A stretch of 64,000 nt of DNA from contig CAZGEJ010000008.1 in NCBI GenBank assembly GCA_964524885.1, forward strand, positions 53,462-117,461. The letters are read 5' to 3'. A program made the translations under genes and the position numbers. This DNA is from an uncultured Candidatus Binatia bacterium (lineage in GTDB: Bacteria > Desulfobacterota > Binatia > HRBIN30). Below the pieces are notes generated by a model that saw only the letters and a list, made by a program, of their open reading frames with translations, did not search any database and had not been told where the DNA came from. This document shows positions 3,001-60,242 of this stretch, in pieces (positions within the stretch are counted from its first letter, which is position 1; each line of letters starts with the position of its first letter).

Positions 3001-6000
3001 TCGTTGAGGCTGGCACCGTTGTCGATGCCGGAGAGCCAATCGCTCAGGCTGATCTTGCCGCTGACGAGTTCGGACAGGGTCAACGAGTCCGGCAAACCGA
3101 TGAGGTCGCCGACGCCCGCTTCCTTGGCAGCCTGACCGACCAGCGAGAGGTCGAGTTCGACGTCGAGGCCGCCGTCGCGGATCAACTCACCTAGATCGAA
3201 GTCGGGGATGAGGTTGATGTAGTCGCCGACGGTGACCTCGTTGGCGATGGTGACCAGGTTGCCGTTGATGACGAGGTTGCCACCAGCCGACAGCTCCATG
3301 CTGCCGCTGTGATCGAGGAGATCGTGCAACCCGTAGACGGTGTCGCTGGCCGTCAGGTTGGCGTTGATCGTCAGGTTGCCGCCGGCGTCGAGGATGATCT
3401 GGTTGCGCGTCGTATCGATCGCGCTGCCGACCGTGACGTCGCCGTCCGCGGTGCCCTTGAAGGAGTGCCCGTCGATGTCGACCCCGGCTTGGATGACCAA
3501 GGTATCGGTGGCGTTGTCGGTGTCGTCATCGATCGTATCGATGCCGATGGCGCCCCAGACGGAGCCCCAATAGAGATCGCTGAGCGAGGGATCCGGCTCA
3601 CTTCCGTAGCCGTCGAAGCCGGCGAGCACGGTGATGTCGCCGCTGGTCGCCTGCAGATCGTTGCTGACGACGATGCCGTCGCCGGCGCGCAGGCTGATGT
3701 CGCCGCCGCGCGCGACCAGGTCGATGGGGACATTGAGGCTCGTTCCCGAACCGATGTCGATACCTTCGGCGAACAGCGTCAGGTTCGAGGGCAGCGAGAC
3801 GCCGGTGTTGCCGAAGAGCGTCACGTCGCCCGCCGGACTGCCCGGGTCCCCATCCGTATCCTCGGTCGACAGGGTCCGGCCGCTCGGCACGGTCAAGGTG
3901 CCGGCGGTGGTGATCTCCAGATCGCCGTCGGGGGTGCGCAGATCGACGGGGACGGTCCACGAAGCGCCGGTGGCGACGTTGAGGCTACCCGCCGTGATCG
4001 TCATCGTATTCGGCGTCGTCAATGCGCCCCCGGCCTGCACCGTGAGCTTGCCACCGTCATCGACGCGCCCGGTATGTTGCGTCAGCAGGCTGGTGTTGGC
4101 ACCGAAGGAAATCGCATCTCCTGCCTCCAGGGTCAGGTCGCCGGCGTTACCGCCCGCCGGATCGATGGTCGAGAGAGCGACGTTGGCGTTGACGGTGATG
4201 TCTTCGGCGGCCACGAGCTCGAGATCGCCGTCCGTCGCCGTCAAGCTGAGGGGGACGGTGAGGCTGGCACCCGATTCGATGTCGATCGCGCCCGCCGCGA
4301 ACGTCATGCTGCTTGGCAGGGTCACGCCCGAGGGGCCGTGCAGGATGACGCTGGCGCCATCACCGGCCTCGGCACTCTGATCGGCACGCAGGATCACGCC
4401 GGAGTTGACGATGACGCTGCCGCTGAAGTCGCCCGGATCATGGATCGAGATGCCCGCCCGCAGTTCGATGTTGCCGGACTGGTCGGTGTCGGTAGTATCG
4501 AGGGTCCTGCTCGAGCTGACCGTGACATTGCCGCGTCCCCAGACCTCGATGTTGCCATCGGAGGGGATCAGATCGCGGACGACCACGTGGGGGATGATGT
4601 CTTCGACGGGGATTTCGAAATCCATGCCGAAGGTATTCGTACCGTCGAAGAAGATCGAGTAGAGCGGTTCGAGAAGGTCGCGCAGCGGATCGATGGCGGC
4701 TTCGTTGAGAATGTCGACGAGGGTGCGATCGCCGAGGGCGGTGCGGGCATCATTCATCGAAGGAGTGCCCGGCAGGATGTCGCCGATGAGGTCTTCGACG
4801 GTGAACTGCCCTTCGATGAGGTCGGCGAGATTGACGCTGTCGGGCAGGTCGACGGTATCGAGGTTGCCGAGCAAGTCGAGGACGCTGTTGAGCGTATCTT
4901 CGACGCCGGTTAGGTCGACCTCGATGTCGAGATCGACGAGCTGGGCTAGGTCGTAGTCGCCATAGGCGGCGAGGTAACTCGACAGGCTGATCTCGTCGGC
5001 CGAGGTCGTCAGGTTGCCGTTGATGGTGACGGATCCTCCGGAGTCGATGTCGATGCTGCCACTCGAAACGCCCAGGTCGGTGAGACCGTGCGTGCCGTCG
5101 GAGGCGTTGAGGGTGCCGCTGATGTCGACGTTGCCGCCGGCGTCGAGGTCGATGGCATAGCGCGTGGCGGTCAGCGAGCCGTCGATGTCGAGGCCGTTAC
5201 CCGCGACCAGGGTGATGCCGGTTCCGCTCAGGTCCGCGCCCGTGCTGAGGTTGAGCGACCCCCCCGACGATGCGTACACGGAGCCATTGGTCGCCGCGAG
5301 GTCGACCGGGATGGTGAAGTCACCACTGCCGGTGGAAGCGAGGCTGAAGCTCCTGCCCCGGACGAGGCTCGTGCTCGGGATGGTGATGGACGACCCCTGG
5401 AGGGTGACCGTACCGTCGCCGGTGCTACCGTCCGAGTTCAGGGCCGACAGATCGACTCCGGTATTGAGTGTCAGGGCGCCGCCAGCGGTGACGCGAATGT
5501 CACCGTCCGGAGCCGTCAAGTCGTACGTCAGGGTCAAGGCGCCGCCCGAGGCGAGGTCGTACGAACCACCGTCGAGTGTCAGCCCCGTGCCGAGGGAAAG
5601 CGTTGCATCGGAAAGGAGGGAGATTTTGTTCCCATCGTTGGCGGCGCTGCCGTTGGCGTCGAGCGTGACGCCGTTGCCGATCGTCAGGTTTCCGACCGCA
5701 TCGAGGGTCAGGGCGCCGGCGGTACCGCCGCCATCGTCGAGGGTGGTCAGCGAGCGACCGTCGGGCACGCTCAGCGCCCCACCCACTACGATCGAGATGC
5801 CGCCGTCTTCGGCCGCCATGTCGAACGGAATCGTCAGATCGCTGGCCGAGGTGATTTGGTAAGCGCCGGCATCGATCGTCGTCGAGGCCGGCAGGGTCAG
5901 CGTGCCGCCGGCCAACAGGGCGACGGTGCCGCCGTTGTTGGCCCCGGGGCGATCCGCGTCGAGGGTGACCGATTCTTCGAGCAGGATGTGACCGCCGGCG

Positions 6001-8617: not shown

Positions 8618-11600
8618 TCACTCCGGATCCGTGCAGTCGACGCGGAATCGCGCCGTGCCGCGGCCGTTGAGAGCCGCTGAACACGACGGCCGCGCATCTT
8701 GGCAGAAGCCGATGCCTGCCGTCGGGCAACTCGGTGCCTCGCAGCCGTCACCATCCTCACCACCCGTCGGAGTACAAGTCGTAAAGCCCTCCTGGCCGAT
8801 GTACTCCCAGCAGCAATCGCCGAAGGTGGGGAACCCGGTCCATCCGCCGTCGGCGGCGATGCCCACCTGGTCGATGTTGTCGAGCGGGGCGTCGGCCTGG
8901 ATCCGACACGTGGTCACGGCATTGTCCGACAGATTGTCGTCGTTCGGTGTCAGGTTGAGCGTCAGGCGTCCCCCCGGCCACTCCGCCGGGTCGACCGAGC
9001 CGCCATCGCTGCTGGTGACGCTGAAGCGGTGTGTACCCTGCGGGCAGCAGATCCCTGGGCTCTGGCAGAGCCCGGAGCCGTTGCAGCGCTCGACTCCGTC
9101 ACAGGCGCGATTGTTGCTCGTGCACACGGAGCCGAACGCGTCGTTGCCGTTGCAGTCGTCCGCGTCCTCGCGGCATTGTTCGCTACAGTCCGAATCGCCG
9201 TCGACTCCGGGGCATGGATTGCCCGAGCCCACGCAGGCTCCGGCGCCATTGCACGAAGAAGTGCTGGTACAGAACAGGCCGTCATTACACGGCTTACCGC
9301 TTGGGTTGTTGCCGGTGCAGGAGTACGTTCCGCCGGTTTCGACACAGGCCTCCGTGCAGTCGGAGCTGTTGAGGCCTTCGTCGACCAGCGACTGGCACGG
9401 ATCGTTGCTGCCGACACAAATGCCGGTCGCGTTGCAGCGGTCCGTCGTCGTGCACGCCAGGCTGTCGTTGCAACTCGAGTTGAGCGGGTCGTTGCCGTTA
9501 CAGTCGTCATTCGCTTCGCGGCACTGTTCACTGCAATCGCCGTCGCCATCGGCGCCCTGGCACGGCGTGCCGGTACCGATGCAGAAGCCGTCGCCGTCGC
9601 AGCGATCGGTGGCGGTGCAGAACAAGCCATCGTTGCACGACACGTTGGCCGGGTCGTTGGTCGAGCAGTCGTCCTCCGCCTCGTTGCAGCGCTCCGAGCA
9701 GTCGCCGTCGCCATCCGGTCCTGGGCACGGATCGCCGGCATGGACGGTACAGGCACCGGCACTGCACCGGTCGGTACCGTTGCAGAAGGTACCGTCCGAG
9801 CAGTTGCTGAGATTGGCATCTTGCGCCGTACAGCTGCCGACGCCGATACAGCCATAGCCGCTGCAGGCCGTCTCGTCGGCGCACGCCTCGCTGCAATCGC
9901 TGTCCAGGTCGCCCAGCTTGAACTGATTCGCGGGCAGGTAACACGGGTCGTTCGGGTCGTCCGGGTCGCTGCCGATGATACAACGCTTGTTGCACGGATC
10001 GGCGCTGCGTACGCACGCACCCGCGCTGCACTTGTCGGCATCGCCGTTGCAGAAATCGTCGTCTCGGCAATCGAGGGCATCAGCCGACACGGCGGTGCAG
10101 CTCGACGTCGCTTCGTCGCAGGCATCTTGGCACGTCGCCGACAAGCCTACGCCGCGACCCAGCAAATCCTTGCTGTCGCCCGGACAGGGCGGCGCGCCGC
10201 CTTGGCATGTGCCGGCGACACAGAAGTCCTGCGCCACGGTGATGTCGGTGCCGTCGATCGAGAACACCTCCGAGGCGCAGGCGCGAGCGGCGCAGCGCCC
10301 ACCGTTCGGACAGTCCGCGTTGCCGGCACAAGGCTTGCCGGCGTCGGGTCCGTCGCAAACGTCGGCGCAGTTGTTGCTGCGGCAGTCCGAGTCCTGCGTG
10401 CAAGCGTTGCCGACGTCCGCGCCGGTGCAGAACAGTTGGTCGTTGCAGGGGGTGCCGTCCGGATCGGGGAAAGTGCAGGTGTTGGCGAACTCGTCACACG
10501 ACTCGCTGCAATTGATGTCGTCGTCGCCGCCATAGGCGCCGCCGTTGGGACAGGGATCGATGTTTTCGCTGACGCACAGACCGCCGGCGCAGACCTCGGT
10601 GCCGTTGCAGAACAGGCGATCGTCGCATGAGGAGCCATCCGGGTCATTGCCCGTGCAGGCATCGGCGCTTTCGTCGCACGTCTCGGAGCAGTCGGTGTCG
10701 GCATCGGGTCCGGCACACGGATCACCCGTGTGAATCGTGCAGGAGCCACCGCTGCACGTATCGTTGCCATTGCAGAAGAATCCGTCGTCGCATGGCGCCT
10801 GGTTGGCCTCGTGGCTGCAAGCGCCGAAGCCGTTGCACTCGTCGTCCGTGCACTGGTTGTCGTCGCTTTCGCAGACCTTGCCGGCAGGGGCGTAGCCGTT
10901 GTCGCGACAGCTGCCGCTGCCGTTGCAGGTGTCCTGCACGACACAGGCGCTACCCGGGTCGCCACATGGCGTTCCGGAGATTTCGAAGTTCGGGCGACAG
11001 ACCCCGGCACCGTTACACGAATCGGGGTTGTTGCATTCGGTATCCGTGCCGTCGCCGCACGTCGTACCGGCATCGACGAAGCCCTGGTCGAGACACTCGC
11101 CGGAACCGTCGCAGGTATCTTGGTTGATGCACTCGGTGCCCGTATCGCCGCAGGCCGTACCTACGGGCATGTCGTTGTCGCCGCACGCGCCGGCACCGTC
11201 GCAGGAGTCGGGTGCCGTACAGGCATTCGAGGTGGGATCGCCGCAGGTCGTGCCGGCCGACTTGAAGCCCTGATCGGCGCATTGGCCGCTGGCATCACAG
11301 GTGTCTTGGTTGGTGCACTCGGTGCCGGCGTCACCGCAATGGCTGCCTACCGTCGCGTGGTTGACGGCACAGGTACCGGAGCCGTCGCAGGTGTCGGGAT
11401 TGGTGCATTCGGTATCCGACGCATCGCCGCAGGGTGTACCGGCCGCGACGAAGCCGGCGTTGCGACATTGGCCGAAGCCGTTGCAGGTGTCCTGGACGAC
11501 GCACTCGCTGCCGGCGTCGCCGCAATCGGTGCCGCTGACGGCATGGTTGCCCTGGCAGGTACCGGCTCCGTCACAGGTGTCGGGGTTGGTACAGGCGTCG

Positions 11601-47694: not shown

Positions 47695-49938
<2,244 letters not shown>

Positions 49939-50130
49939 CCCACCACACTCCTTTCACCGTCGACACGGGCACGGTTGGGTAGCAGGTTCGGCGCGAGCGC
50001 GACAGCCCCGCAGGTGACGCGCCGTCAGGGCGGCAACAAATGCCTTGATTTCGGAACGGGACCAAAGGCAAAGGAACAGGACGCTCCCCGACGGAGACGG
50101 ATGGGGGGAGGAGGGGACGGCGGGCGAAGC

Positions 50131-50991
50131 ATGGCTGCAGCGACGGGTTTGACCATACGATTCTGGGGGGTACGCGGGAGTTTCCCGGTGCCCGGTCCGA
50201 GTTGCGCCGAAGTCGGCGGCAACTCCTCGTGCGTCGAGGTGGAGGCCGGCGGCCAACGCATCATCTTCGACGCCGGCACCGGGCTGATCGGCCTCGGGGC
50301 GCGCCTGATTCGCCGCGGCAAGCCGCATCCGCTGCACCTGTTCCTCAGCCACCTCCACTACGACCACATCGAGGGCATCCGCTTCTTCAAGCCGCTGTAC
50401 CGCCCGGCGTGGGCGTGCACGATCTACGGACCGGACAGCCGGCGGCCGGACCTGGCGGAGTTGCTGACGCAGAACATGTCGGGGCGCTTCTTCCCGGTCG
50501 ATTTCCGCAAGCTGCCGGCGCAAGTGACGGTGCGCCCGTTGGGCAAGAGCGACACGGTGGTGCTGCCCGGCAGCCCTGAGGTGCGCATCGAGACGGAGTA
50601 CAGCGCGGCGCATCCGACCTTCGGCGTGCAGTTCTACCGATTGACCTGCGGCCGGCGTTCGATCGTTTATGCCACCGACGTCGAGGCGCCCAAGGGTGGT
50701 TTCGACGAAGTGGTGCGCTTCGCCAAAGGGGCCGACGTGTTGATCCACGACGCCCAGTACACGGACCAAGAGTATTTCCGCGAGGTGGACAACCGACAGG
50801 GGTGGGGTCACAGCACCGTGCGCATGGCGGCGGAAGCGGCCCGCGCCGCCGAGGTGGGGCAACTGGTGTTGTACCACCACGACCCGACGCGCACGGACAC
50901 GCAGATGCCGCCGCTCCTCAAGCTGGCGACGAAGATCTTCCCCAACACGATCCTGGCCCGCGAAGGCCTGAGCGTCCGCCTACGAGCGTGA
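50131..50991 (+). CDS. MBL-fold metallo-hydrolase
   Basis: HLHYDH motif (LSHLHYDHIEG) with an upstream GGAGGAGGGG. It is the genuine C-terminal part of track ORF 48925..50991; an alternative start is 50101. Confidence 0.7.
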   Translation: MAAATGLTIRFWGVRGSFPVPGPSCAEVGGNSSCVEVEAGGQRIIFDAGTGLIGLGARLIRRGKPHPLHLFLSHLHYDHIEGIRFFKPLYRPAWACTIYGPDSRRPDLAELLTQNMSGRFFPVDFRKLPAQVTVRPLGKSDTVVLPGSPEVRIETEYSAAHPTFGVQFYRLTCGRRSIVYATDVEAPKGGFDEVVRFAKGADVLIHDAQYTDQEYFREVDNRQGWGHSTVRMAAEAARAAEVGQLVLYHHDPTRTDTQMPPLLKLATKIFPNTILAREGLSVRLRA

Positions 50992-51027
50992 GCGCGCCTG
51001 CCATGGCGGCGTGAGCGTCGTTGGTGA

Positions 51028-51189
51028 GGTCGGCGACGCGAAACGAGGCTAGTGCGGCTAGGCGACGCTCGTCAGCCTCTGCTGGTGATCTTGGTCGGCG
51101 GTAGCACCAAACAACGTCAGTCCGACGCGATCGCCGCGGCGCTGGAGTGTTGGCAGGACTATCGGAGAAGAAAGAAGCGGGAGATGTAG
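51028..51189 (+). pseudogene. 3' remnant (~53 codons) of an HI1419-type addiction-module killer (RelE/HigB-like) gene; the 5' part is absent
   Basis: The frame ending in TAG at 51187 translates as ...ARQPLLVILVGGSTKQRQSDAIAAALECWQDY, matching the conserved C-terminus of TIGR02683-type killers (..LIILLCGGDKSTQ..DI..A..L...). It has no start codon and abuts the MBL hydrolase stop codon. Confidence 0.5.
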
Positions 51190-51191
51190 AG

Positions 51192-51515
51192 ATGGCACTG
51201 ACGCGAGATTTTCGCGACACCGTTCTCGAGCGGGCGCAGAGCGAACCGGCCTACCGGCGCGGCCTTCTGACCCGCGGGGTGGCGTTCATGGTGAGCGGTG
51301 ATGCGGAGGACCGCGCTGTCGGCCGGGCGCTGATCCGCTACTACATCAACGCGACGATCGGTTTCCAGCGACTCGGCGACGACCTCGGGTGCAAACCGCA
51401 GAGCTTGATGCGGATGTTCAGCAGCACCGGCACCCCCCGGCTCAACAGCCTCGCCGATGTCGTTCACCGCCTGCAGGAGCACGAAGGCATCCACCTCGAG
51501 GTTGCCGCGAAGTGA
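51192..51515 (+). CDS. Addiction-module antidote protein, HI1420 / HigA-like family (DNA-binding)
   Basis: MALTRDFRDTVLERAQSEPAYRRGLL...KPQSLMRMFSSTGTPRLNSLADVVHRLQEHEGIHLEV matches the TIGR02684-type antidote pattern (..SRESLYRALS.NGNPRLDTLLKVL.ALGL.L.V). Confidence 0.65.
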   Translation: MALTRDFRDTVLERAQSEPAYRRGLLTRGVAFMVSGDAEDRAVGRALIRYYINATIGFQRLGDDLGCKPQSLMRMFSSTGTPRLNSLADVVHRLQEHEGIHLEVAAK

Positions 51516-51747
51516 CGTTCAACGATTACCGTCGGTGCTCGAGGTGCATGAAGGTGGCCAGCCACCCAATTGCTGCCGAGGACCCCAGACACTCCCGACA
51601 GTGTCGTGAAGTGTAAGTGTCTTGCTTGTCCTACATTGCGCACAAAGGTAACGCCTAGCCGATAGTACGCCGTAGCGAGCTGTGGTAGGCGGGAGAGCCT
51701 TGGTCCAAGGGAACGAAGTCGCTCGCAGATCCTGGGGCCGCGTCGTA

Positions 51748-52206
51748 ATGGTCGTGCTTGGTTCCTGCATGTCGGTCCTGGCGTCCTGTGATTCCGCCAG
51801 TTCACCAAGCTCGGCAGCGCCGACAGCAAGTCCGAGCGCGACAGTAGCCGGAGTACACTCGCCGACCGCAAGCCCTGGCGCAACTTCGACAATGACGCCC
51901 GATCCAACACCAACACCCACCCATTCCCCGCCTTCGTTCGAGGTGTGCTTGGCAGCAAAGGCAAGGAATCGAGAAGACTGTCTTCGGAGCGGGGGCCAGT
52001 GGACTCGCAATTCAACATTCACCGACATCTGCGTCTGCCCGACCGGAGAAGGCGACGTTCCTTGCGAAAGCAACGCTCAGTGCCTGGCGGGCTGCGTTGC
52101 TTCTGCTCGGCGCGATTGTGTAGGCGTCTCGTTCTTTTGCGCCTCGCAAGCGCCGCTCGTAGGCTGCTTCTGCAGCCCTGGGGAGCGATTCGTTATTTGC
52201 GATTGA
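51748..52206 (+). CDS. Cys-rich lipoprotein (lipobox VLASC), unknown function
   Basis: MVVLGSCMSVLASCDSASSPSS... followed by a Thr/Pro/Ser linker and a Cys-rich C-terminal domain; it lies in a lower-GC stretch. Confidence 0.5.
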   Translation: MVVLGSCMSVLASCDSASSPSSAAPTASPSATVAGVHSPTASPGATSTMTPDPTPTPTHSPPSFEVCLAAKARNREDCLRSGGQWTRNSTFTDICVCPTGEGDVPCESNAQCLAGCVASARRDCVGVSFFCASQAPLVGCFCSPGERFVICD

Positions 52207-52230
52207 TTTCAAAACGGGGTAGCGTAACGC

Positions 52231-52256
52231 CAAGTGCTCGATAGGTTTCGAGAAAT
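52231..52256 (+). repeat. 26-bp direct repeat, copy 1 (CCAAGTGCTCGATAGGTTTCGAGAAA); copy 2 is at 54099-54124
   Basis: The two copies differ at 2 positions (cgatAGgttt versus cgatGAgttt) and flank a 1.85-kb segment. Confidence 0.8.
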
Positions 52257-52446
52257 GATCCTGCCGGACGTCAACGTCCTCGTGCACGATTACAACTCCA
52301 ACCTTCCGGCCGCCACTTCACGAACCTGCAGGCGGCGCTCAAGGTCGCGGCGCGCATCCGCTTCGCCTGGCGAAGCAGTTTCGAACGAGTGTGAAGGCAT
52401 CAGGTACCAATGGAACCTGCGCGGCGAAGGTTTCGGGCTCCCGTAG
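52234..52446 (+). pseudogene. Possible degraded vapC-like (PIN) toxin remnant
   Basis: Starts MILPDVNVLVHDYNSN (a PIN N-terminus-like sequence) and then loses coherence. It is preceded by an 11-nt spacer after a ...PSAR* mini-ORF end, which is the typical antitoxin-stop/toxin-start geometry. Confidence 0.3.
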
Positions 52447-53180
52447 TTGTATTCCTGGGGCTGGCAGCAATCGCCTCGGGGATGGCGGCGATCTATACGC
52501 TCCGATTCCCGGTGTACTTGTGGTTGAGCCATCTGTGGAGCGAGTCAGGGGCACGCGCTGCCGTGGGGTATGCCGCGATTGAAGCACCGAACATCGAAGC
52601 GGAATCGTTGTACGTATACGATTCGTTCCCGTATCCTCGCGTTGACATTACGAATCCGCGTTTCCAGCTCGGCGTGGTCGAATCGCCTGCTCTGTCCGGA
52701 CAGACGCCGGTGGAGATCGCTGTCAACCGCGCAAAGGCCTATCTGCGGGCGATCGCTCCGGAGATCGGACTCGCGCCGTTCGAGAGCTTGCGCGAAGTAT
52801 CCGTCTCCGCAGGGGCGCCGCCCTACAACTTCGTGGTCGTGCTCCAGCGGACGGTGGATGGTATCGATGTCGAGGGTGCGACTGCAATCGTCACGATCGG
52901 GCCGAACGACGAGGTCACAGGAGTCGTTGTCGCCCTGGTCAGACTGGATGACTCGGTCGCGTTGATTACCAGTGAGAGTGGTCTGAGCAAGAGCTCGATC
53001 GTTCGAGGAATGGCGTGGCTCACGGGTCAGTCGCCTGAAAGTATGTGGTGCGAGCGATACTTATCGGTGCAGGCACCGCATCTCCGGTGGAGGGTTACGT
53101 TCGGGCTGGAGGTCGTCACTGTAGATGCGATCACGGGTGCCTTCATTAGCTACGAACTGGGTCCGGGGTTCCTTCCGTAG
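52410..53180 (+). CDS. Hypothetical secreted or membrane-anchored protein (256 aa)
   Basis: ORF with an N-terminal hydrophobic segment VVVFLGLAAIASGMAAIYTL; no recognisable motif. Confidence 0.4.
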   Translation: MEPARRRFRAPVVVFLGLAAIASGMAAIYTLRFPVYLWLSHLWSESGARAAVGYAAIEAPNIEAESLYVYDSFPYPRVDITNPRFQLGVVESPALSGQTPVEIAVNRAKAYLRAIAPEIGLAPFESLREVSVSAGAPPYNFVVVLQRTVDGIDVEGATAIVTIGPNDEVTGVVVALVRLDDSVALITSESGLSKSSIVRGMAWLTGQSPESMWCERYLSVQAPHLRWRVTFGLEVVTVDAITGAFISYELGPGFLP

Positions 53181-53398
53181 CTTCAACAGGGGTGGCTGGA
53201 CAGTCCGAGCATCGGACGTAGTCCTCGCAGAAGTGGTCGATGCTGCCGTGATGGCGTCGGCTGCCGTGTTCGGTGCGCAAGGAGCTACTGCCGCGATCAT
53301 GCTACGTCCGACAAATTCCGTTCCCGGCGGAAACGCAGCTTGTACGGGCTGTCGGCCCAGTCTTCAGAGAGCCGGACAACGATCGCGACCACCCGCCA

Positions 53399-53701
53399 TC
53401 ATGCCGCCTCGGTCCGTTTCAGCGGCTTGATGTCGAGGATCGTCCGGGCGCTCGGCAGCGTCTTGAGATCATAGGCGGCCTGAAGGTTCAGCCAGAACTC
53501 GGCGCTACCGCCGAAATAGCGAGCGAGGCGGGCGGCGGTATCAGCCGTGACAGCGCGCCGCCCGAGCACGATGTCATTGATTCGCGACGCCGGCACCCGC
53601 AGCGCCATCGCCAGCGCGTGCGGGCTCATCTGCAGCGGCACCAGAAAGTCCTCGCGGAGAATCTCTCCGGGATGAATCGGACGCATACGATTTGTGGGCA
53701 T
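53399..53701 (-). CDS. higA: HigA antitoxin (XRE-family HTH)
   Basis: MPTNRMRPIHPGEILREDFLVPLQMS...INDIVLGRRAVTADTAARLARYFGGSAEFWLNLQAAYDL is the canonical HigA sequence; the start is taken at MPTN. Confidence 0.85.
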   Translation of the reverse strand: MPTNRMRPIHPGEILREDFLVPLQMSPHALAMALRVPASRINDIVLGRRAVTADTAARLARYFGGSAEFWLNLQAAYDLKTLPSARTILDIKPLKRTEAA

Positions 53702-53715
53702 GGTGTTCTCCCTCC

Positions 53716-53991
53716 TCAATGGTAATCCACGATCTCGACGTCCTCCGCGGCATCGGTCCAGCGGAAGCAAATCCGCCATTGATCGTTGATGCGGATGCTC
53801 CACTGGCCCTCCCGATCACCGGAGAGCTTCTCCAGTCGGTTGCCCGGCGGCGCGCGCAGATCACCGAGCTGGGTGGCCGCATCCAGCGCTTGGAGCCTGC
53901 GTTCGGCGACCGACCGAAACGCGCGAAATCGGGCAGGACACTTGCCGCCGTAGAGCGCCTCGGTGTCCTTGCCCCGGAAGGTCTTGATCAC
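53716..53991 (-). CDS. higB: HigB toxin (RelE/ParE superfamily plasmid-maintenance killer)
   Basis: VIKTFRGKDTEALYGGK...LDAATQLGDLRAPPGNRLEKLSGDREGQWSIRINDQWRICFRWTDAAEDVEIVDYH matches HigB. A GTG start is assumed; an in-frame ATG at 54075 would add 28 aa. Confidence 0.8.
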   Translation of the reverse strand: MIKTFRGKDTEALYGGKCPARFRAFRSVAERRLQALDAATQLGDLRAPPGNRLEKLSGDREGQWSIRINDQWRICFRWTDAAEDVEIVDYH

Positions 53992-54098
53992 GCCGGGAAG
54001 GTATACCGCGTTGCGGTAAGTGTCTAGCGGTATGCACGCGGGGGAGGGGTCAGGGTACGCGACGCAGGAGCGCATCCAATGGCGAATCGGGGTGGCAC

Positions 54099-54124
54099 CA
54101 CTCCAAGTGCTCGATGAGTTTCGA
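54099..54124 (+). repeat. 26-bp direct repeat, copy 2 (CCAAGTGCTCGATGAGTTTCGAGAAA)
   Basis: See copy 1. It is also preceded by a short ORF ending ...PSAR* (MANRGGTTPSAR*). Confidence 0.8.
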
Positions 54125-54662
54125 GAAAGGCGCGTGCCGGGGCTTGCGTTTGAGCTTGGGGGCGCGTTTCCGGGGGCGAAATGGCGGCGCAAGGTCCGCG
54201 GCGGTGGGGTGAATTCGCCGTGTCGGTGATCAGCGGGGCGAACGAGGTCGGTGCAGCGGCGTTCGACCATGGCGGTGCTCCGTGCCTGCGTCCAGCGTAC
54301 GACGTTCCCTTCTGATGCTGCCAAGGCGGACTCGGCGAAATCTAAGGCTCCTGGCTGCCACTGCGACTGTGCGCAGCGGAATGCGCGGCGCTTCGCGGCC
54401 GACGCTCGCTGCGAAGCCATCGGCTCGGGTCGACGCTCATCGGCGGCGAGAGCGCGTGCCGATGTTCTGGGTTGATCTTTTAAATCTGACGTGCGAGCAG
54501 TCCTCCTGAAGTATCTTGTAAGAAAAACTGATTCGGTCGCACGTCTTGCCGACGTGTTGCCCTAACGACAGGGCCTCCGCGGGGGAGGTCAGGCGCATCA
54601 CCGACGAAGCGCGTAGTCATCGGTTCCCGGCGACCACATCGCTTCGTAAAGGGAGGGATTCC

Positions 54663-57600
54663 GTGACCTCGACCCGAAACCTACTCTTCTTCTGGTTGCT
54701 GCTGGCCGCCGCTGCCCCCGCCTACGCAACGAGCTACACCTGGACCGCCGGAGGATTCGTCTCCGGGTCCGCAACCGTGTGGAGCAATCCCGCCAATTGG
54801 AACCCCAACGGCGTACCTGGACCCGGAGATGATGTCGTCATCGACGCCACCATCACCTCGGAGAACGTCTATCTCGACGTCAACGTCACCGTCCGCAACT
54901 ACACCCAGAGCGGACTCAACTTGTACGCAGATGGGAACCTCACCACGACCGGAACCCTGACGTGGCTGGGAGGCCAGATGCAGCGGGCCGGGCTCGCCAC
55001 CGGCGACATCAACGCCAACGGCCCGGTCCTCATCAGCGGCAGCGCATCCAAGATCCTCGGCCGCACATTCAATTGTAATGCCGGAGCGACGTGGACCGGT
55101 TCCGGCGACATCTTTCTCGGGCAGAACGTCGACAACGCAGTGCTCAACATCGCTGCTGGCACCGTCTTTGAGATCCGAGGTGATGCCACGTTCAAGGGCT
55201 CGCTGCTGAGCAACGGCAAGACGGGAACCATCAACAACGCCGGCACCTTGCGCAAGACGACCGCTACCGGGATCACCAAGGTGGAGTCACCGGTCGTCTT
55301 CAACAATACCGGCGCGACCGACATTCAGTCGGGAACCTTGGATCTGACCACCAACGCCACCTACAGCACCGGCACCTTCGGCGCCACGGGCGGCGGGGTG
55401 GTCGGCTTCAGCACCGGTACCCACACCATCCAACCGCCGGCGGCGTTCAATGGCAATACGCTGGTCAACGGCGCGACGGTGAGTTTCACCGGCACTTCGA
55501 ATGCCGTCGGCAGCCTGAGCGTTTCCTCGGGCACGCTGAACCTCAACACGACCGGCACCCTAACCGCCACGAGCATCGCGCCGGCCGGTGGCACGACGAA
55601 TTTCATCGGACCCGTCAACGCCGGGACCGTCAACGCGAGTGCCGGCACTTCGGCGATTACCGGTGCGCTCACCGCCGCGAACCTACAGCTGAGCGGCACC
55701 GCTACGGTCAACTTCACGGCGAGCACTCCAGCCCTGACAGACGTCAGCCTCTCGGGCGGAACTCTCACCTTCGATACCAGCGGCACTGCAGTCGCCGTCG
55801 GCAGCCTCACCCAAAGCGGCGGCACGCTGCAGGGCGCTGACGACGTCAACGTCACCGGTGCACTCAGCTATTCGGCAGGCACGATGGGCGGCACCGGCGC
55901 CACCAACGCCAACGGCGCGTGGTCGCTCAGCGGCACCGGAACCAAGACTCTTCGTCGTACCCTCAACAGCAATGCCGATGCGACTTGGATGAACGACGGC
56001 ACGCTGACCCTCGGAAACGGCGCGGTCGGCGGCGTGCTCAACATCGCCAACGGCACCACCTTCGACGCTCAGGGCAACGGGTCTTTCGCACTCGGAGCCA
56101 CCAGCGCCACGATCAACAACAGCGGTACCTTCCAGAAGAGCGTCGGTTCCGGCACCACCACGGTCGGCACGTCCGTCGTCTTCAACAACACCGGTGCCGT
56201 CGACGTCCAGACAGGCACCTTGTCGATCGGCTCCCCCGGAAATACCTATTCCGGAACCTTCGACGCCACCGGCGCGCAGTTGCGCCTCACCGCTGGCACG
56301 CACAACTTCGGCGGCGCGGCCTCGGTGACCGGTGGCCTGACCGTCGCTGGCGCGACCGTCAACTTCAACGGCACAGGCGCCACTCTCGGCAGCGTGACCG
56401 TCAGCAGCGGTACCCTCAACGTCTCGCCGAGCAGCGCCGTGGCCATCAGCAGCGTGAGCGTCTTGGGCGGTACGGCAAACTTCACGACGGCTGGGACGAC
56501 CATCGACAGCATCGGCATCACCAACGGAACCCTGAATCTCAGCACTTCGACCGCAACCAGCGCCACCAGCCTGACGATGAGCGGCGGAACACTGTCCGGC
56601 TCCGCCACTCTCCATGTATCCGGAGCGTTGGCTTGGTCTGGCGGCCTCATGAGCGGCACCGGCACGACCAACGCCAACGGGGCCTGGACCATGAGCGGTG
56701 TCGGGTCCAAGAGTCTTGGGCGAACGTTGAACAGCAATGCATCCGCCATCTGGACCGGGAGCGGCCCACTGGCTTTCAACGGCGGCGTGCTCAACATCGC
56801 GAGCGGCACGGTCCTCGACACCCAGGGCGACGCATCTATCTCGTTTAGCGCCGTGAGCGCTACCGTAAACAACAGCGGAACGTTCCAGAAATCGGGGGGC
56901 ACCGGCACCACCGCCGTCAACGCCAACGTCGTCTTCAACAATGGCGGCGTGGTGGACGCGCAAACCGGCACGATCACTTTCGGCAGCGGCGGCGGAACGC
57001 ATACCGGCTCCTTCGACGGTACCGGCGCGACCCTCAGCTTCACCGCCGGTACTCACACCTTCAGCGGCAATGCATCGGTGAGTGCCGCCAACTTCAGCGG
57101 CGCTACCGCCAACTTCACCGGTACCAGCGCGACTCTGAGCGCCATCACGCTCAGCGGCGGTACGGTGAACTTCAGCACCAGCAGTCCGTCGGTGAGCATC
57201 GCCGGATTGACGCAGAGCGGTGGGACGCTGAACGGGGCCGACGACGTCAACGTGAGCGGTGCGCTGTCGTGGACCGGCGGGACGATGAGTGGTACCGGCG
57301 CGACGAACGCCAACGGTACGCTCTCGATCTCCACGAGCACGGCGAAGATCCTGGGGCGTACCCTGAACAGCAACGGCACGGGAACATCGGGCACCTCGGT
57401 AAACCTTGGATTCAGCAGCGGCACCCTCAACATCGCGAGCGCGACGACGTTTACCGCGGATGCCGCGAGTTGGACTCTCGCGTCGACGGGCGGCACGGTG
57501 AACAACGCGGGAACCTTCATCAAGTCGACGGCGGGTGGCGCTGCGACGCTGACGTTCGCGTCCGGGATTGCCTTCCACAACAGCGGAACGGTGGATGTAC

Positions 57601-60242
57601 AAAGCGGCTCGCTAACGCTCCCCACCAGCGGCACGCACTCCGGTTCATTCGATGCCACCGGAGCGATGGTCACGTTCAGCGGCGGCACTCATACCTTCAC
57701 GGGCGGGAACGCGCTCACGGGCAGCTCGACGTTCAGCGGCGCCACGGCGAACTTCAACGGAACGACCTCGACCCTCGAAACCGTAACGCTCAGCAGCGGG
57801 ACCCTGCAAGGTTCGGGGACGGTAGACATTGGAACATTGACCTGGAGCGGCGGCACGATGGCCGGCACCGGTGTCACGAATGTGAACACTGCGTCGACGA
57901 TCAACGGCAGTGCGAGCAAAACTCTCGCTCGAACGCTGAACAGCAAAGGCACCGGCAACTTCACGCAAGGCAGCCTGGTGTTCGGCAGCAGCGGTGTCGG
58001 TGGCGTGCTCAACATTGCGGCGGGTACGACATTCAGTGTTTCCGGCGCACAGTTTCCGTCCCCATCGATCAGCCTCGGCGCGGTCAGCGGGGTGATCAAC
58101 AACGCCGGTTCGTTCGTCAAGTCGAATACGTCCGGCAGCGTGGCGATCGGTGCTGGTGTCGCGTTCAACAACAGCGGCACGGTCGACGTGGATGCCTCCG
58201 GTCTCATCCTGAGCGGCGGCGGCACCCATGCAGGATCCTTCGATGCTACGGGCCGGACCATCGAGTTCAACGGCGGGACCCATACCTTCACCGGGAGCGG
58301 CACTGTGATCGGCGGCGTCACCTTCACCAATAGCGGAACCTTCGACTTCACGGGCAGCGGGGCGACGCTCGGCAACGTCACCCTCAACAGCGGTACGGTG
58401 AGCCTCAACACCAGCAGCCCCACCGTCAGCGCCGCAAGCTGGATCCACAACGGCGGGACTCTCCAGGGCGCCAATCACCTGACGCTGAGCGGTGCGCTGA
58501 CCTGGTATGGTGGCTCGATCGTGGGTGGCGCGGATCTCACGGTCAACGGGGCTGCCACCATCGCCTTTTCGACGACGCTGGCGCGCAGGCTCAACGTCAA
58601 CGGGCCGGGCGGCACGCTCTCTCACACCCTCACCATGGGCGTCGGCGGCGTCGGCGGCGAACTCCATATCGGACCGGCCGGGGTACTCGTGGTTCAAGGT
58701 ACCACCGGGTCGATCAACTTCGGGGACACCAGCGCCGCAATCCACAATGCCGGCGTGCTCCAGCGCAGCAACGATACAGGCACGACCACCGTCGGCCCAG
58801 GGGTGACCTTCGAGAATTCCGGCACCGTTACCGCGACGCTCGGCACCCTGAACGTCGGCGGCGCGTACTCGCAGACGGCGGGGACGACCAGCATCAACGG
58901 TGGCTCCATCGTCGCGACGGGTCCCGTGAACGTGCAGGGCGGAACGATCGCGGGCTCCGGATCGCTGACGATGGACGTCGTCAATAGCGGCGGCACGCTG
59001 AGCCCCGGTGCATCACCAGGCTTGCTCACGTCGACCGGCGGTTACGGCCAAGGCACTGCTGCGACATACACGGTCGAGATCGGCGGCCTCATCGCGGGAA
59101 CGGAGTTTGACCAGACGACGTGGACTGCTCCCGTCACTCTCGACGGTACTCTCAACGTGAGCGTGATTTCGCCGTTCGTGCCAAACGCCGGCGACACCTT
59201 CGAGATCATGACCTTCCCGTCGCGCACGGGTACCTTTGCCACGGTCAACGGATTGATCGTCGGCAACGGCAAGGGCTTCACTCTCGACTATGGGGCCACC
59301 GCACTGAGGTTGACGACCATCGAAGAGATCTGTGGCGACTCGACCGACAACGACGGCGATACTTTGATCGATTGCCTCGATCCTAAATGCGCCGATGCGC
59401 TCTACTGCGTTGGGACCGCCACCCCGACGCAGACGCCGACTCCGACCATCACAGAGACCCCGACGCATACCGCGACCGTGACCCCGACCGAGGCCGCGAC
59501 GGCGACGCAAACGGCCACCGAGACGCCAACGGAGACGGCGACGCACACCGCGACGTCGACGCCGACCGAAACGCCGACCCCATCAGCGACCGACACCCCG
59601 ACAGCCGCGCCGACCGATACCGCGACTCTGACACCGTCTGCTTCTCCGACCGCGTCTGCTTCGCCGACACCGGCGGTCGGAACGAGCTGCCCTGCGGCGC
59701 CCGTGACCTGTCGCGACGGCGGCAAGGGATCGGTCGCGCTGAGCTACGATTCCGATCCCACAAAGCGCAAGTTTTCGTGGAAGTGGGGGAAAGGTCTGCT
59801 GACGAGCGAACAAGCGGATTTCGGCAATCCGGTGAGCGGAACACCGCGCTACACTCTCTGCCTCTACGACGAGAGTGCCGATATCCCTACGCTGGCGATG
59901 GAGCTCGAAGTGGACGCTCAGGGTACTTGCGACGACAAGCCGTGTTGGAAGCTAGTTTCCGACAAGGGCTGGGCTTACAAGAGCAAGAGCGGCAACGGCA
60001 GTGGAGTGCTGAAGGTCGCCTTCAAGGGTGGCGACGCCGGCAAACCTTCGCTGCGGGTATCCGCGAAGGGCGCGAGCCTGCCGCTGCCGACGCCGCTCAG
60101 CGGTAGCGAGTCCTTGGACCTCGACAGCAACGTCATCGTGCAGTGGCACGTCAGCGCCCCGGCCGGTTGCTGGCAGAGCGAATTCTCCCTCACGGGCGTG
60201 AAGAAGAACGACGGGGAAGACTTCAAAGCGGTCGCGCCGTAA
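54663..60242 (+). CDS. Large secreted beta-helix-like repeat protein (1859 aa): five ~290-aa tandem repeats, a CxDxDxDGD metal-binding-like Cys motif, a Thr/Pro linker and a C-terminal Cys-containing domain
   Basis: GTG start with GGGAGGG upstream and signal peptide LLFFWLLLAAAAPAYA. The repeated block is ...GTGxTNANGxWxxSGxGxKxLxRTLNSNAxAxWxxxGxLxxGNGAVGGVLNIAxGTxF...NNSGTFQKSxGxGTT.... Then comes EEICGDSTDNDGDTLIDCLDPKC, followed by (TPTxT)n. Confidence 0.75.
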   Translation: MTSTRNLLFFWLLLAAAAPAYATSYTWTAGGFVSGSATVWSNPANWNPNGVPGPGDDVVIDATITSENVYLDVNVTVRNYTQSGLNLYADGNLTTTGTLTWLGGQMQRAGLATGDINANGPVLISGSASKILGRTFNCNAGATWTGSGDIFLGQNVDNAVLNIAAGTVFEIRGDATFKGSLLSNGKTGTINNAGTLRKTTATGITKVESPVVFNNTGATDIQSGTLDLTTNATYSTGTFGATGGGVVGFSTGTHTIQPPAAFNGNTLVNGATVSFTGTSNAVGSLSVSSGTLNLNTTGTLTATSIAPAGGTTNFIGPVNAGTVNASAGTSAITGALTAANLQLSGTATVNFTASTPALTDVSLSGGTLTFDTSGTAVAVGSLTQSGGTLQGADDVNVTGALSYSAGTMGGTGATNANGAWSLSGTGTKTLRRTLNSNADATWMNDGTLTLGNGAVGGVLNIANGTTFDAQGNGSFALGATSATINNSGTFQKSVGSGTTTVGTSVVFNNTGAVDVQTGTLSIGSPGNTYSGTFDATGAQLRLTAGTHNFGGAASVTGGLTVAGATVNFNGTGATLGSVTVSSGTLNVSPSSAVAISSVSVLGGTANFTTAGTTIDSIGITNGTLNLSTSTATSATSLTMSGGTLSGSATLHVSGALAWSGGLMSGTGTTNANGAWTMSGVGSKSLGRTLNSNASAIWTGSGPLAFNGGVLNIASGTVLDTQGDASISFSAVSATVNNSGTFQKSGGTGTTAVNANVVFNNGGVVDAQTGTITFGSGGGTHTGSFDGTGATLSFTAGTHTFSGNASVSAANFSGATANFTGTSATLSAITLSGGTVNFSTSSPSVSIAGLTQSGGTLNGADDVNVSGALSWTGGTMSGTGATNANGTLSISTSTAKILGRTLNSNGTGTSGTSVNLGFSSGTLNIASATTFTADAASWTLASTGGTVNNAGTFIKSTAGGAATLTFASGIAFHNSGTVDVQSGSLTLPTSGTHSGSFDATGAMVTFSGGTHTFTGGNALTGSSTFSGATANFNGTTSTLETVTLSSGTLQGSGTVDIGTLTWSGGTMAGTGVTNVNTASTINGSASKTLARTLNSKGTGNFTQGSLVFGSSGVGGVLNIAAGTTFSVSGAQFPSPSISLGAVSGVINNAGSFVKSNTSGSVAIGAGVAFNNSGTVDVDASGLILSGGGTHAGSFDATGRTIEFNGGTHTFTGSGTVIGGVTFTNSGTFDFTGSGATLGNVTLNSGTVSLNTSSPTVSAASWIHNGGTLQGANHLTLSGALTWYGGSIVGGADLTVNGAATIAFSTTLARRLNVNGPGGTLSHTLTMGVGGVGGELHIGPAGVLVVQGTTGSINFGDTSAAIHNAGVLQRSNDTGTTTVGPGVTFENSGTVTATLGTLNVGGAYSQTAGTTSINGGSIVATGPVNVQGGTIAGSGSLTMDVVNSGGTLSPGASPGLLTSTGGYGQGTAATYTVEIGGLIAGTEFDQTTWTAPVTLDGTLNVSVISPFVPNAGDTFEIMTFPSRTGTFATVNGLIVGNGKGFTLDYGATALRLTTIEEICGDSTDNDGDTLIDCLDPKCADALYCVGTATPTQTPTPTITETPTHTATVTPTEAATATQTATETPTETATHTATSTPTETPTPSATDTPTAAPTDTATLTPSASPTASASPTPAVGTSCPAAPVTCRDGGKGSVALSYDSDPTKRKFSWKWGKGLLTSEQADFGNPVSGTPRYTLCLYDESADIPTLAMELEVDAQGTCDDKPCWKLVSDKGWAYKSKSGNGSGVLKVAFKGGDAGKPSLRVSAKGASLPLPTPLSGSESLDLDSNVIVQWHVSAPAGCWQSEFSLTGVKKNDGEDFKAVAP

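Follow-up and report, generated by a model that had tools for sequence, protein, structure and literature searches.

Toxin–antitoxin (TA) pairs of the HI1419/HI1420 kind, in which a toxin of the RelE/ParE superfamily (TIGR02683, also PF05973 Gp49) is partnered by an antidote of the TIGR02684/PF21716 type, are the closest described counterparts of the locus considered here, an antidote gene and the remnant of its toxin gene in a 64-kb stretch of DNA (the window) from an uncultured Candidatus Binatia bacterium. The order of the two genes in the window is that of these pairs, toxin first, but the toxin gene is down to 35 codons and cannot work as part of a TA pair, and the branch to which the antidote belongs fails the curated thresholds of both TIGR02684 and PF21716. 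Orphan antitoxins are frequent and stem mostly from degraded pairs, with roles as relics, regulators or anti-addiction factors having been proposed for them; examples include Caulobacter parD beside a parE pseudogene and Shigella YacA beside a frameshifted yacB, and ~2250 have been predicted in Klebsiella (PMC7354431). The locus in the window is like those reviewed in that an intact antitoxin gene stands beside recognisable toxin debris, and unlike them in belonging to another TA family and in that a related contig, L063, brackets the lesion in time and sister contigs allow selection in the orphan state to be estimated. That TA decay can end in an orphan antitoxin beside a toxin pseudogene is well documented, and the locus alone carries little weight.

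Two further systems invite comparison. The chromosomal ccd locus of Erwinia chrysanthemi acts against the F-plasmid CcdB (cited in PMC7354431), and by analogy the window antidote, which has plasmid relatives, could neutralise an incoming toxin, although the Erwinia locus is an intact chromosomal pair whilst that in the window is an orphan. In mqsRA, a toxin-first system, antitoxin promoters lie inside the toxin open reading frame (ORF) (PMC6918082); the window shares the toxin-first order and the 3′ part of its dead toxin gene is unusually conserved, but the families are unrelated and a promoter scan of the remnant region was negative. Here we report that the window carries a decayed type II TA operon of the HI1419/HI1420 kind, the orphan antidote of which is probably still expressed and of some use to the cell.

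The toxin remnant

The remnant (51082..51189, forward strand) consists of the final 35 codons, 51082-51186, and the TAG stop codon of a 5′-truncated HI1419/TIGR02683-type RelE/ParE-family toxin gene; an earlier reading of this DNA made from the letters alone (the sequence-only reading) had rightly recognised a conserved C-terminal toxin piece, which it put at about 40 residues. The frame ends in LLVILVGGSTKQRQSDAIAAALECWQDYRRRKKREM and its TAG at 51187-51189 stands exactly 2 nucleotides (nt) ahead of the antidote ATG at 51192, as that reading had noted. It had also taken the frame to be open from the stop codon of the upstream metallo-β-lactamase (MBL)-fold hydrolase gene onwards, but an in-frame TGA lies at 51025-51027 and the frame is open from 51028 only, and its description of a frame without a start codon has to be qualified by a GTG at 51052 that could begin a 45-amino-acid peptide, whilst no member of the family starts there.

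When the frame was compared with TIGR02683, residues 17-45 aligned with model positions 67-95 of 95 (15 bits, E=0.024). A custom hidden Markov model (HMM) of 109 positions, built from 24 intact partner toxins encoded at loci carrying relatives of the antidote, matched the remnant with 40.2 bits (E=1.9e-11) at model positions 74/75-108, and no other match arose when every six-frame segment of 25 amino acids or more in the 64-kb window was searched. The resemblance to the C-terminus of HI1419-type killer proteins that the earlier reading had asserted is thus significant. The remnant stays below the TIGR02683 cut-off of 62.85 bits, which applies to the whole protein, and is a fragment of a family member rather than a member.

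No full-length toxin ORF (~95-115 amino acids with a start codon) lies directly 5′ of the antidote gene, and no full-length, frameshifted or inverted toxin was found in any of the three forward frames across 50800-51200 or in the six frames of the 64 kb. The six-frame profile search of the window also ruled out a toxin gene that is complete but frameshifted, or locally inverted. The DNA at 50995-51081, considered as degenerate toxin sequence, gave no profile match in any frame and no DNA homology to the toxin genes of the related loci L064 or L061. Homology at the DNA level between the window and the full-length toxin gene of L064 extends over 51081-51520 and sets in abruptly at GCTGGTGATC, which corresponds to toxin codon 74/75; ~74 of about 108 codons and the operon promoter are absent from the window. 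This substantiates the loss of the 5′ part of the toxin gene proposed in the sequence-only reading, in which deletion and overwriting were both offered, two modes that cannot be told apart in DNA that has undergone at least two rearrangements. To judge from the known RelE/ParE fold, the 35 remaining codons would supply at most one strand and the C-terminal helix and could not form such a toxin; the lost part would have contributed most of the sheet along with the helices of the N-terminus, which makes the toxin non-functional. With only model positions 75-108 of the toxin surviving, and with other DNA in place of the operon promoter region, the locus does not constitute a functional type II TA system.

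The antidote gene and its family

The antidote ORF (51192..51515, forward strand) encodes 107 amino acids and runs uninterrupted from the ATG at 51192 to the TGA at 51513-51515. The likely Shine-Dalgarno sequence, GGGAG (51179..51183, forward strand), is embedded in the final codons of the remnant, 8 nt 5′ of the ATG. It falls within a 40-nt leader (51152-51191) comprising the only upstream bases still shared by L060, a related locus described below, and this ribosome-binding site inside the remnant is retained in all lineages compared.

The antidote scored 13.9 bits (E=0.046) against TIGR02684, under the curated cut-off of 53.7 bits, and no domain was matched in a search of Pfam, including PF21716 (cut-off 27 bits). 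Relatives of the same branch that do have a toxin partner likewise fall below TIGR02684 (L006, 16.5 bits; L012, no match). In order to assess the relationship by profile-profile comparison, the antidote family alignment (A4) was compared using hhalign with a bona fide TIGR02684 member, L006:4291-4590, which passes both the TIGR02684 and PF21716 cut-offs, and columns 2-108 aligned with residues 1-97 at a probability of 96.8% (E=2.1e-10). The two have in common the MA.TRD[FY]RE start and an L.RM.S..GNP motif, and the C-terminal half of the antidote conforms to the lambda-repressor-like helix-turn-helix fold of Xre-type antitoxins. We conclude that the antidote represents a divergent HI1420-type antitoxin that has a predicted Xre-like helix-turn-helix; its assignment as HI1420-type, made already in the sequence-only reading, holds by homology and not by the curated models. 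More than 3144 homologues of ~105 amino acids exist, none with a Pfam domain, and members of the branch are labelled ‘DNA-binding phage protein’ (Joint Genome Institute, JGI) or ‘transcriptional regulator’ (Prokaryotic Genome Annotation Pipeline, PGAP). Although the JGI label points to phages, a search of a phage collection found no relatives of the antidote, whilst 73 plasmid records in PLSDB matched it, the top-listed of which annotate a ‘RelE/ParE family toxin’ beside a ‘transcriptional regulator’. With over 3000 relatives that both Pfam and NCBIfam miss, the TA loci and orphans of this HI1420-like branch will have been under-counted.

Two residues set the window antidote apart. It carries N81T in the G80-N81-P82 turn, GNP being invariant in 117 other family members, and D50Y at a position occupied by D in 90% of the family.

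Related loci and the age of the lesion

Relatives carrying the intact pair, a comparison that the sequence-only reading had called for, were found in L006/L007/L008, L012, L061 and L062, where a gene of 108-110 amino acids ends 1-47 nt 5′ of the antidote gene. More generally, relatives have a toxin of 106-115 amino acids that passes TIGR02683 in the position of the remnant (the intact toxins of L006 and L012 score 93-94 bits), and their C-terminal ends are the part to which the window remnant aligns. An antidote gene starting only a few nt from the end of an intact HI1419-type toxin gene was seen at 22 of 47 genome loci surveyed (see below) in addition to L006, L012, L061 and L062. In L006/L007, from a Deltaproteobacteria metagenome-assembled genome (MAG), a second and canonical HI1419/HI1420 pair (3966-4593; TIGR02683 115 bits, TIGR02684 67 bits) lies 1.1 kb downstream of the pair of the diverged branch, showing that the two branches coexist in a single genome.

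The nearest relatives allow the lesion to be placed in sequence. L005 is a sister contig from another sample, and is labelled L063 where a longer flank is included. Its antidote is 94% identical to that of the window, and window positions 50995-52234 are present in it at 88% identity with the same truncated toxin and the same 87-nt junction, the blastn block starting at 50995. To the left of this position L063 has unrelated DNA, there being no MBL gene but a space beside a divergent gene for a 966-amino-acid regulator. At least two rearrangements have therefore occurred, an older break in the toxin gene at 51081/82, common to the window and L063, and a later one at 50994/95. Because the truncation is shared, all of the divergence between the window and L063 accrued with the antidote already an orphan. 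L060 encodes an antidote 89% identical to that of the window, and its homology with the window is confined to 51152-51515, that is the 40-nt leader and the ORF to its stop codon, with both flanks different. In L064/L065 the antidote is ~90% identical and the upstream toxin gene is full-length, its sole inactivating lesion a TAG at codon 95; in L064 (toxin gene at 1318-1647) the normal stop codon has been lost as well.

One shallow clade thus contains three independent toxin lesions: L064/L065 have the nonsense mutation, the window and L063 a 5′ deletion as far as codon 75, and L060 a deletion reaching ~codon 96. An intact antidote gene of 107 codons stands beside each. This natural series of nonsense mutation, 5′ deletion and deeper deletion makes selection on the antitoxin comparable before and after toxin loss. 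Another decay state is seen at L010/L011 (2331-2471), where an N-terminal toxin fragment with an internal stop codon (model positions 8-54) precedes an intact antidote gene in L010.

Selection on the antidote since toxin loss

Divergence between the window and L063 is distributed unevenly. The junction (50995-51081) and the intergenic DNA 3′ of the antidote gene (51516-51681) differ at 12 of 87 and 24 of 166 positions (86.2% and 85.5% identity respectively), the toxin remnant (51082-51189) differs at 4 of 108 (96.3%) and the antidote gene (51192-51515) at 13 of 324 (96.0%). Amino-acid-changing sites of the antidote gene are 2.5% diverged, compared with 14% in the flanking non-coding DNA; at the flank divergence of 14.2% we would expect 34 non-synonymous differences where 6 were seen (P=3e-9), whilst the synonymous differences (7 seen, 11 expected) fit neutrality. 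The ratio of non-synonymous to synonymous divergence (dN/dS) for this pair was 0.27, with a significant excess of synonymous changes (binomial P=0.02).

Across lineages, dN/dS values were 0.09-0.12 in comparisons with L064, in which differences fall predominantly at third codon positions (8, 3 and 30 at the first, second and third positions), whilst among the three 5′-deleted lineages values were 0.27 (window-L063), 0.44 (window-L060) and 0.91 (L063-L060), with nearly flat codon-position differences (5, 2 and 6, and 7, 8 and 9). Since dN/dS is higher among the orphan lineages than against L064 and still 0.27 between the window and L063, purifying selection on the antidote has been relaxed since toxin loss yet persists. 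The GNP turn has been altered differently in each 5′-deleted lineage, being GTP in the window (N81T), CNP in L063 (G80C) and GNS in L060 (P82S), whilst L064 retains GNP. A mutated GNP was found in 4 of 27 orphan antidotes and in 0 of 24 paired antidotes, but this test was picked post hoc and the clustering of replacements in the turn was itself noticed after the fact, and both are suggestive only.

The toxin remnant has diverged ~4 times less than the adjacent non-coding DNA and is as conserved as the antidote gene in the comparison with L063. Three possible causes are signals acting in cis for the antidote gene, constraint on the 45-amino-acid peptide, and a more recent ancestor of the TA segment gained by recombination.

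Toxin loss across the family

In order to assess how common this state is, we surveyed 47 species-representative genomes carrying a relative of the antidote, identified in a GTDB genome scan, all such relatives being at most 52% identical to it. The survey is conditioned on the presence of the antidote gene and is thus biased towards orphan antidotes as against orphan toxins. The toxin gene was intact at 22 loci, carried a nonsense codon at 2 and a frameshift at 3, was reduced to a C-terminal remnant at 4, an N-terminal remnant at 2 and an internal piece at 1, and was represented by nothing detectable at 13. An intact toxin gene was therefore missing in 25 of the 47, whilst a full-length antidote ORF was retained in 43, and the sample quantifies the one-sidedness of TA decay in the family, just over half of the loci lacking a working toxin and nearly all keeping the antidote. 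The C-terminal remnant of one independent lineage, L032, begins at model position 76, nearly the same as position 75 in the window. Leave-one-out profile scores of orphan and paired antidotes had medians of 174.6 and 175.6 respectively (P=0.21), and decayed antidotes were present at some loci (L056-L059). The state seen in the window, an orphan antidote with toxin debris, is typical of the family. In a cell the toxin may go before the antidote but never the reverse, which accounts for orphan antidotes beside toxin debris being common in it.

Origin and possible use of the orphan antidote

In operons of this kind the toxin gene stands first with the antidote gene 1-5 nt behind it, and here an old rearrangement took the promoter and the first ~74 of ~108 toxin codons whilst sparing the antidote gene. 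Under the explanation that we favour, and consider probable, the antidote would still be made, the likely sources being transcripts that read through from the MBL gene, 200 nt away on the 5′ side, together with the ribosome-binding site inside the remnant; read-through is plausible as there is no terminator-like site on the forward strand between the MBL stop codon and the antidote ATG, and a scan of 50700-51800 likewise predicted no terminator on that strand. The protein may keep some use through its helix-turn-helix, most plausibly in anti-addiction, where it would neutralise in trans the related toxins carried by plasmids, with a leftover repressor role as a second option. The occurrence of homologous pairs on plasmids and the purifying selection in the orphan state make the antidote a candidate for anti-addiction, both being circumstantial.

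Several observations weigh against continued expression and use. The operon promoter is gone, the same scan of 50700-51800 recognised no sigma-70-like promoter, and expression of the antidote gene is a prediction from the DNA. No related toxin that could serve as an anti-addiction target is encoded within the 64-kb window. N81T and D50Y lie at conserved positions and the protein could already be impaired. The estimates of selection draw on few substitutions, 13 to 24 per pair, and the value of 0.91 for L063-L060 is indistinguishable from neutral. Finally, the low divergence of the TA segment could reflect a more recent common ancestor through recombination, in which case the flank-based test is weakened, although the internal dN/dS test is unaffected.

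The main rival to this explanation is that the antidote is a pure relic, a neutral leftover without function that has not yet been disabled, the apparent constraint on it arising from short divergence or recombination. The dN/dS values of 0.91 and 0.44 in the two comparisons with L060 speak for this, as do the near-uniform codon-position differences among the orphan lineages against the strong third-position bias with L064, the three independent changes in an otherwise invariant GNP with the additional D50Y of the window, and the consideration that the forced order of loss would alone predict many transient orphan antidotes, some of which, those of L056-L059, have decayed. A neutral leftover is hard to reconcile, however, with the deficit of non-synonymous changes between the window and L063 (6 against 34) and the dN/dS of 0.27 for that pair, with the replacement of both flanks of L060 leaving homology over exactly the ORF and its 40-nt leader, and with orphan antidotes being as well conserved family-wide as paired ones, and we regard it as unlikely, if still deserving of serious attention. 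The debris directly 5′ of the antidote gene is that of a cognate toxin which stood here and was destroyed, and this tells against a split pair, in which the antidote would serve a toxin encoded elsewhere, whether another toxin of HI1419 type or the HigB of an intact higBA module 2.2 kb downstream. That the genome is seen over 64 kb only leaves room for such a partner, but HigB has its own adjacent HigA (109 bits on TIGR02607) and the window holds no further TIGR02683-type toxin or fragment, making a split pair very improbable.

The conservation of the remnant gives rise to a different proposal, that remnant and antidote gene form a domesticated two-part unit in which the remnant is kept as a promoter or 5′ leader of the antidote gene, or as an antidote-binding peptide of 45 amino acids begun at the GTG at 51052. 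The remnant differs at 4 of 108 positions between the window and L063 against 36 of 253 in the non-coding DNA next to it (Fisher P=0.003; Poisson P=0.0006), the segment of high identity has exactly the limits of the TA-derived DNA (51082-51515), the GTG is retained in L063, the L032 remnant starts at nearly the same model position independently, and two constitutive mqsA promoters within the mqsR toxin ORF (PMC6918082) provide a precedent. Yet the region shows neither a promoter-like site nor unusual RNA structure (the predicted fold of 51040-51215 did not exceed those of shuffled sequences in stability, z=+1.2), most of the remnant is dispensable in L060, which retains the last 40 nt only, and two amino acid changes separate the window from L063 in the 10 codons between the GTG and the toxin-derived part. 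The 2 synonymous and 2 non-synonymous changes in the remnant moreover leave protein and nucleotide constraint indistinguishable. A domesticated unit of this kind appears improbable to us, and we give equally little credence to its extension in which N81T, G80C and P82S would be an adaptive retuning of DNA binding and not decay; if true, the lineages would form a natural series of an antitoxin turning into a free-standing regulator or immunity factor.

An assembly artefact, with the MBL/remnant junction a chimeric join, might be suspected in a contig of metagenome type with a breakpoint only 4 nt past a stop codon, but the junction recurs, identical in sequence and with the same 200-nt spacing, in contigs assembled independently from different runs (L001, L002 and L004), from which we take it to be real, and the inner breakpoint at 51081/82 is common to L063 from an unrelated sample. 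A chimeric join is accordingly extremely improbable. The favoured explanation, an orphan antidote of a decayed operon that is probably expressed and of some use, describes the antidote as an orphan within the 64-kb window; the earlier claim of an orphan antitoxin stands on that scale and is not a statement about the whole genome.

Neighbouring genes and junction DNA

The gene immediately upstream lies outside the TA module and encodes an MBL-fold hydrolase (50188..50991, forward strand; 267 amino acids, RNase Z-like; PF12706 73 bits) with its TGA stop codon at 50989-50991. It is complete at the C-terminus, as NF000801 (RNase Z) pairs residue 281/283 with model position 303/307, and it is called as 267 amino acids in the identical contigs L001/L002. 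A spurious long open frame (48925..50991) opposite the preceding helicase gene runs into the MBL frame, and the true MBL start is near 50188. The helicase itself, of PcrA/UvrD type (47695-49938, reverse strand), scored 843 bits on TIGR01073, slightly under the cut-off. Between the MBL gene and the remnant lies the junction DNA (50995..51081, forward strand), which is not toxin-derived and whose left edge is the second breakpoint, 50994/95. Rfam and tRNA scans were empty.

Downstream, GC content is 59-61% over 51500-53500 compared with 65-71% in the helicase and MBL genes beside it, and this low-GC stretch, with the TA debris, two ORFs (ORF174 and ORF256) and higBA, fits a variable or acquired region. 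ORF174 (51682-52206, forward strand) has a lipoprotein-like signal ending in LASC and a cysteine-rich C-terminus and matched no family; in L063 it is 82% identical at the nucleotide level (94 of 530 aligned columns differ, 82.3% identity), more diverged than the neighbouring non-coding DNA. ORF256 (52410-53180, forward strand; 256 amino acids) has an N-terminal hydrophobic segment and a weak FTP (Fungalysin/Thermolysin Propeptide) motif (PF07504, 26 bits). The intact higBA module (53399-53991, reverse strand) comprises HigB (53716..53991, reverse strand; PF05015 62 bits) and HigA (53399..53701, reverse strand; TIGR02607), the two genes being 14 nt apart.

ORF256 sits between two copies of a 56-nt direct repeat (52212-52267 and 54085-54140, 79% identity) that bracket a 1.8-kb segment containing it and higBA. 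The core of the repeat, CGGGGTGGCACCACTCCAAG, is an imperfect palindrome, and the repeat may mark a cassette boundary or att-like site, or may act as an operator. In L063 copies of the core at 9345-9400 and ~10985-11010 also flank a segment, which consists of a 200-nt match to window positions 54085-54285, 264 nt that are unmatched and the block of remnant, antidote gene and ORF174, in an order that is a circular permutation of that in the window; the 56-nt repeat together with the permuted blocks led to no single clean model of the ancestral arrangement when L063 was used to reconstruct it. Beyond the second repeat copy, 54546-60242 (forward strand) encodes a 1898-amino-acid, repeat-rich and Thr/Gly/Ser-rich protein that is predicted to be secreted, and its DNA contains internal direct repeats.

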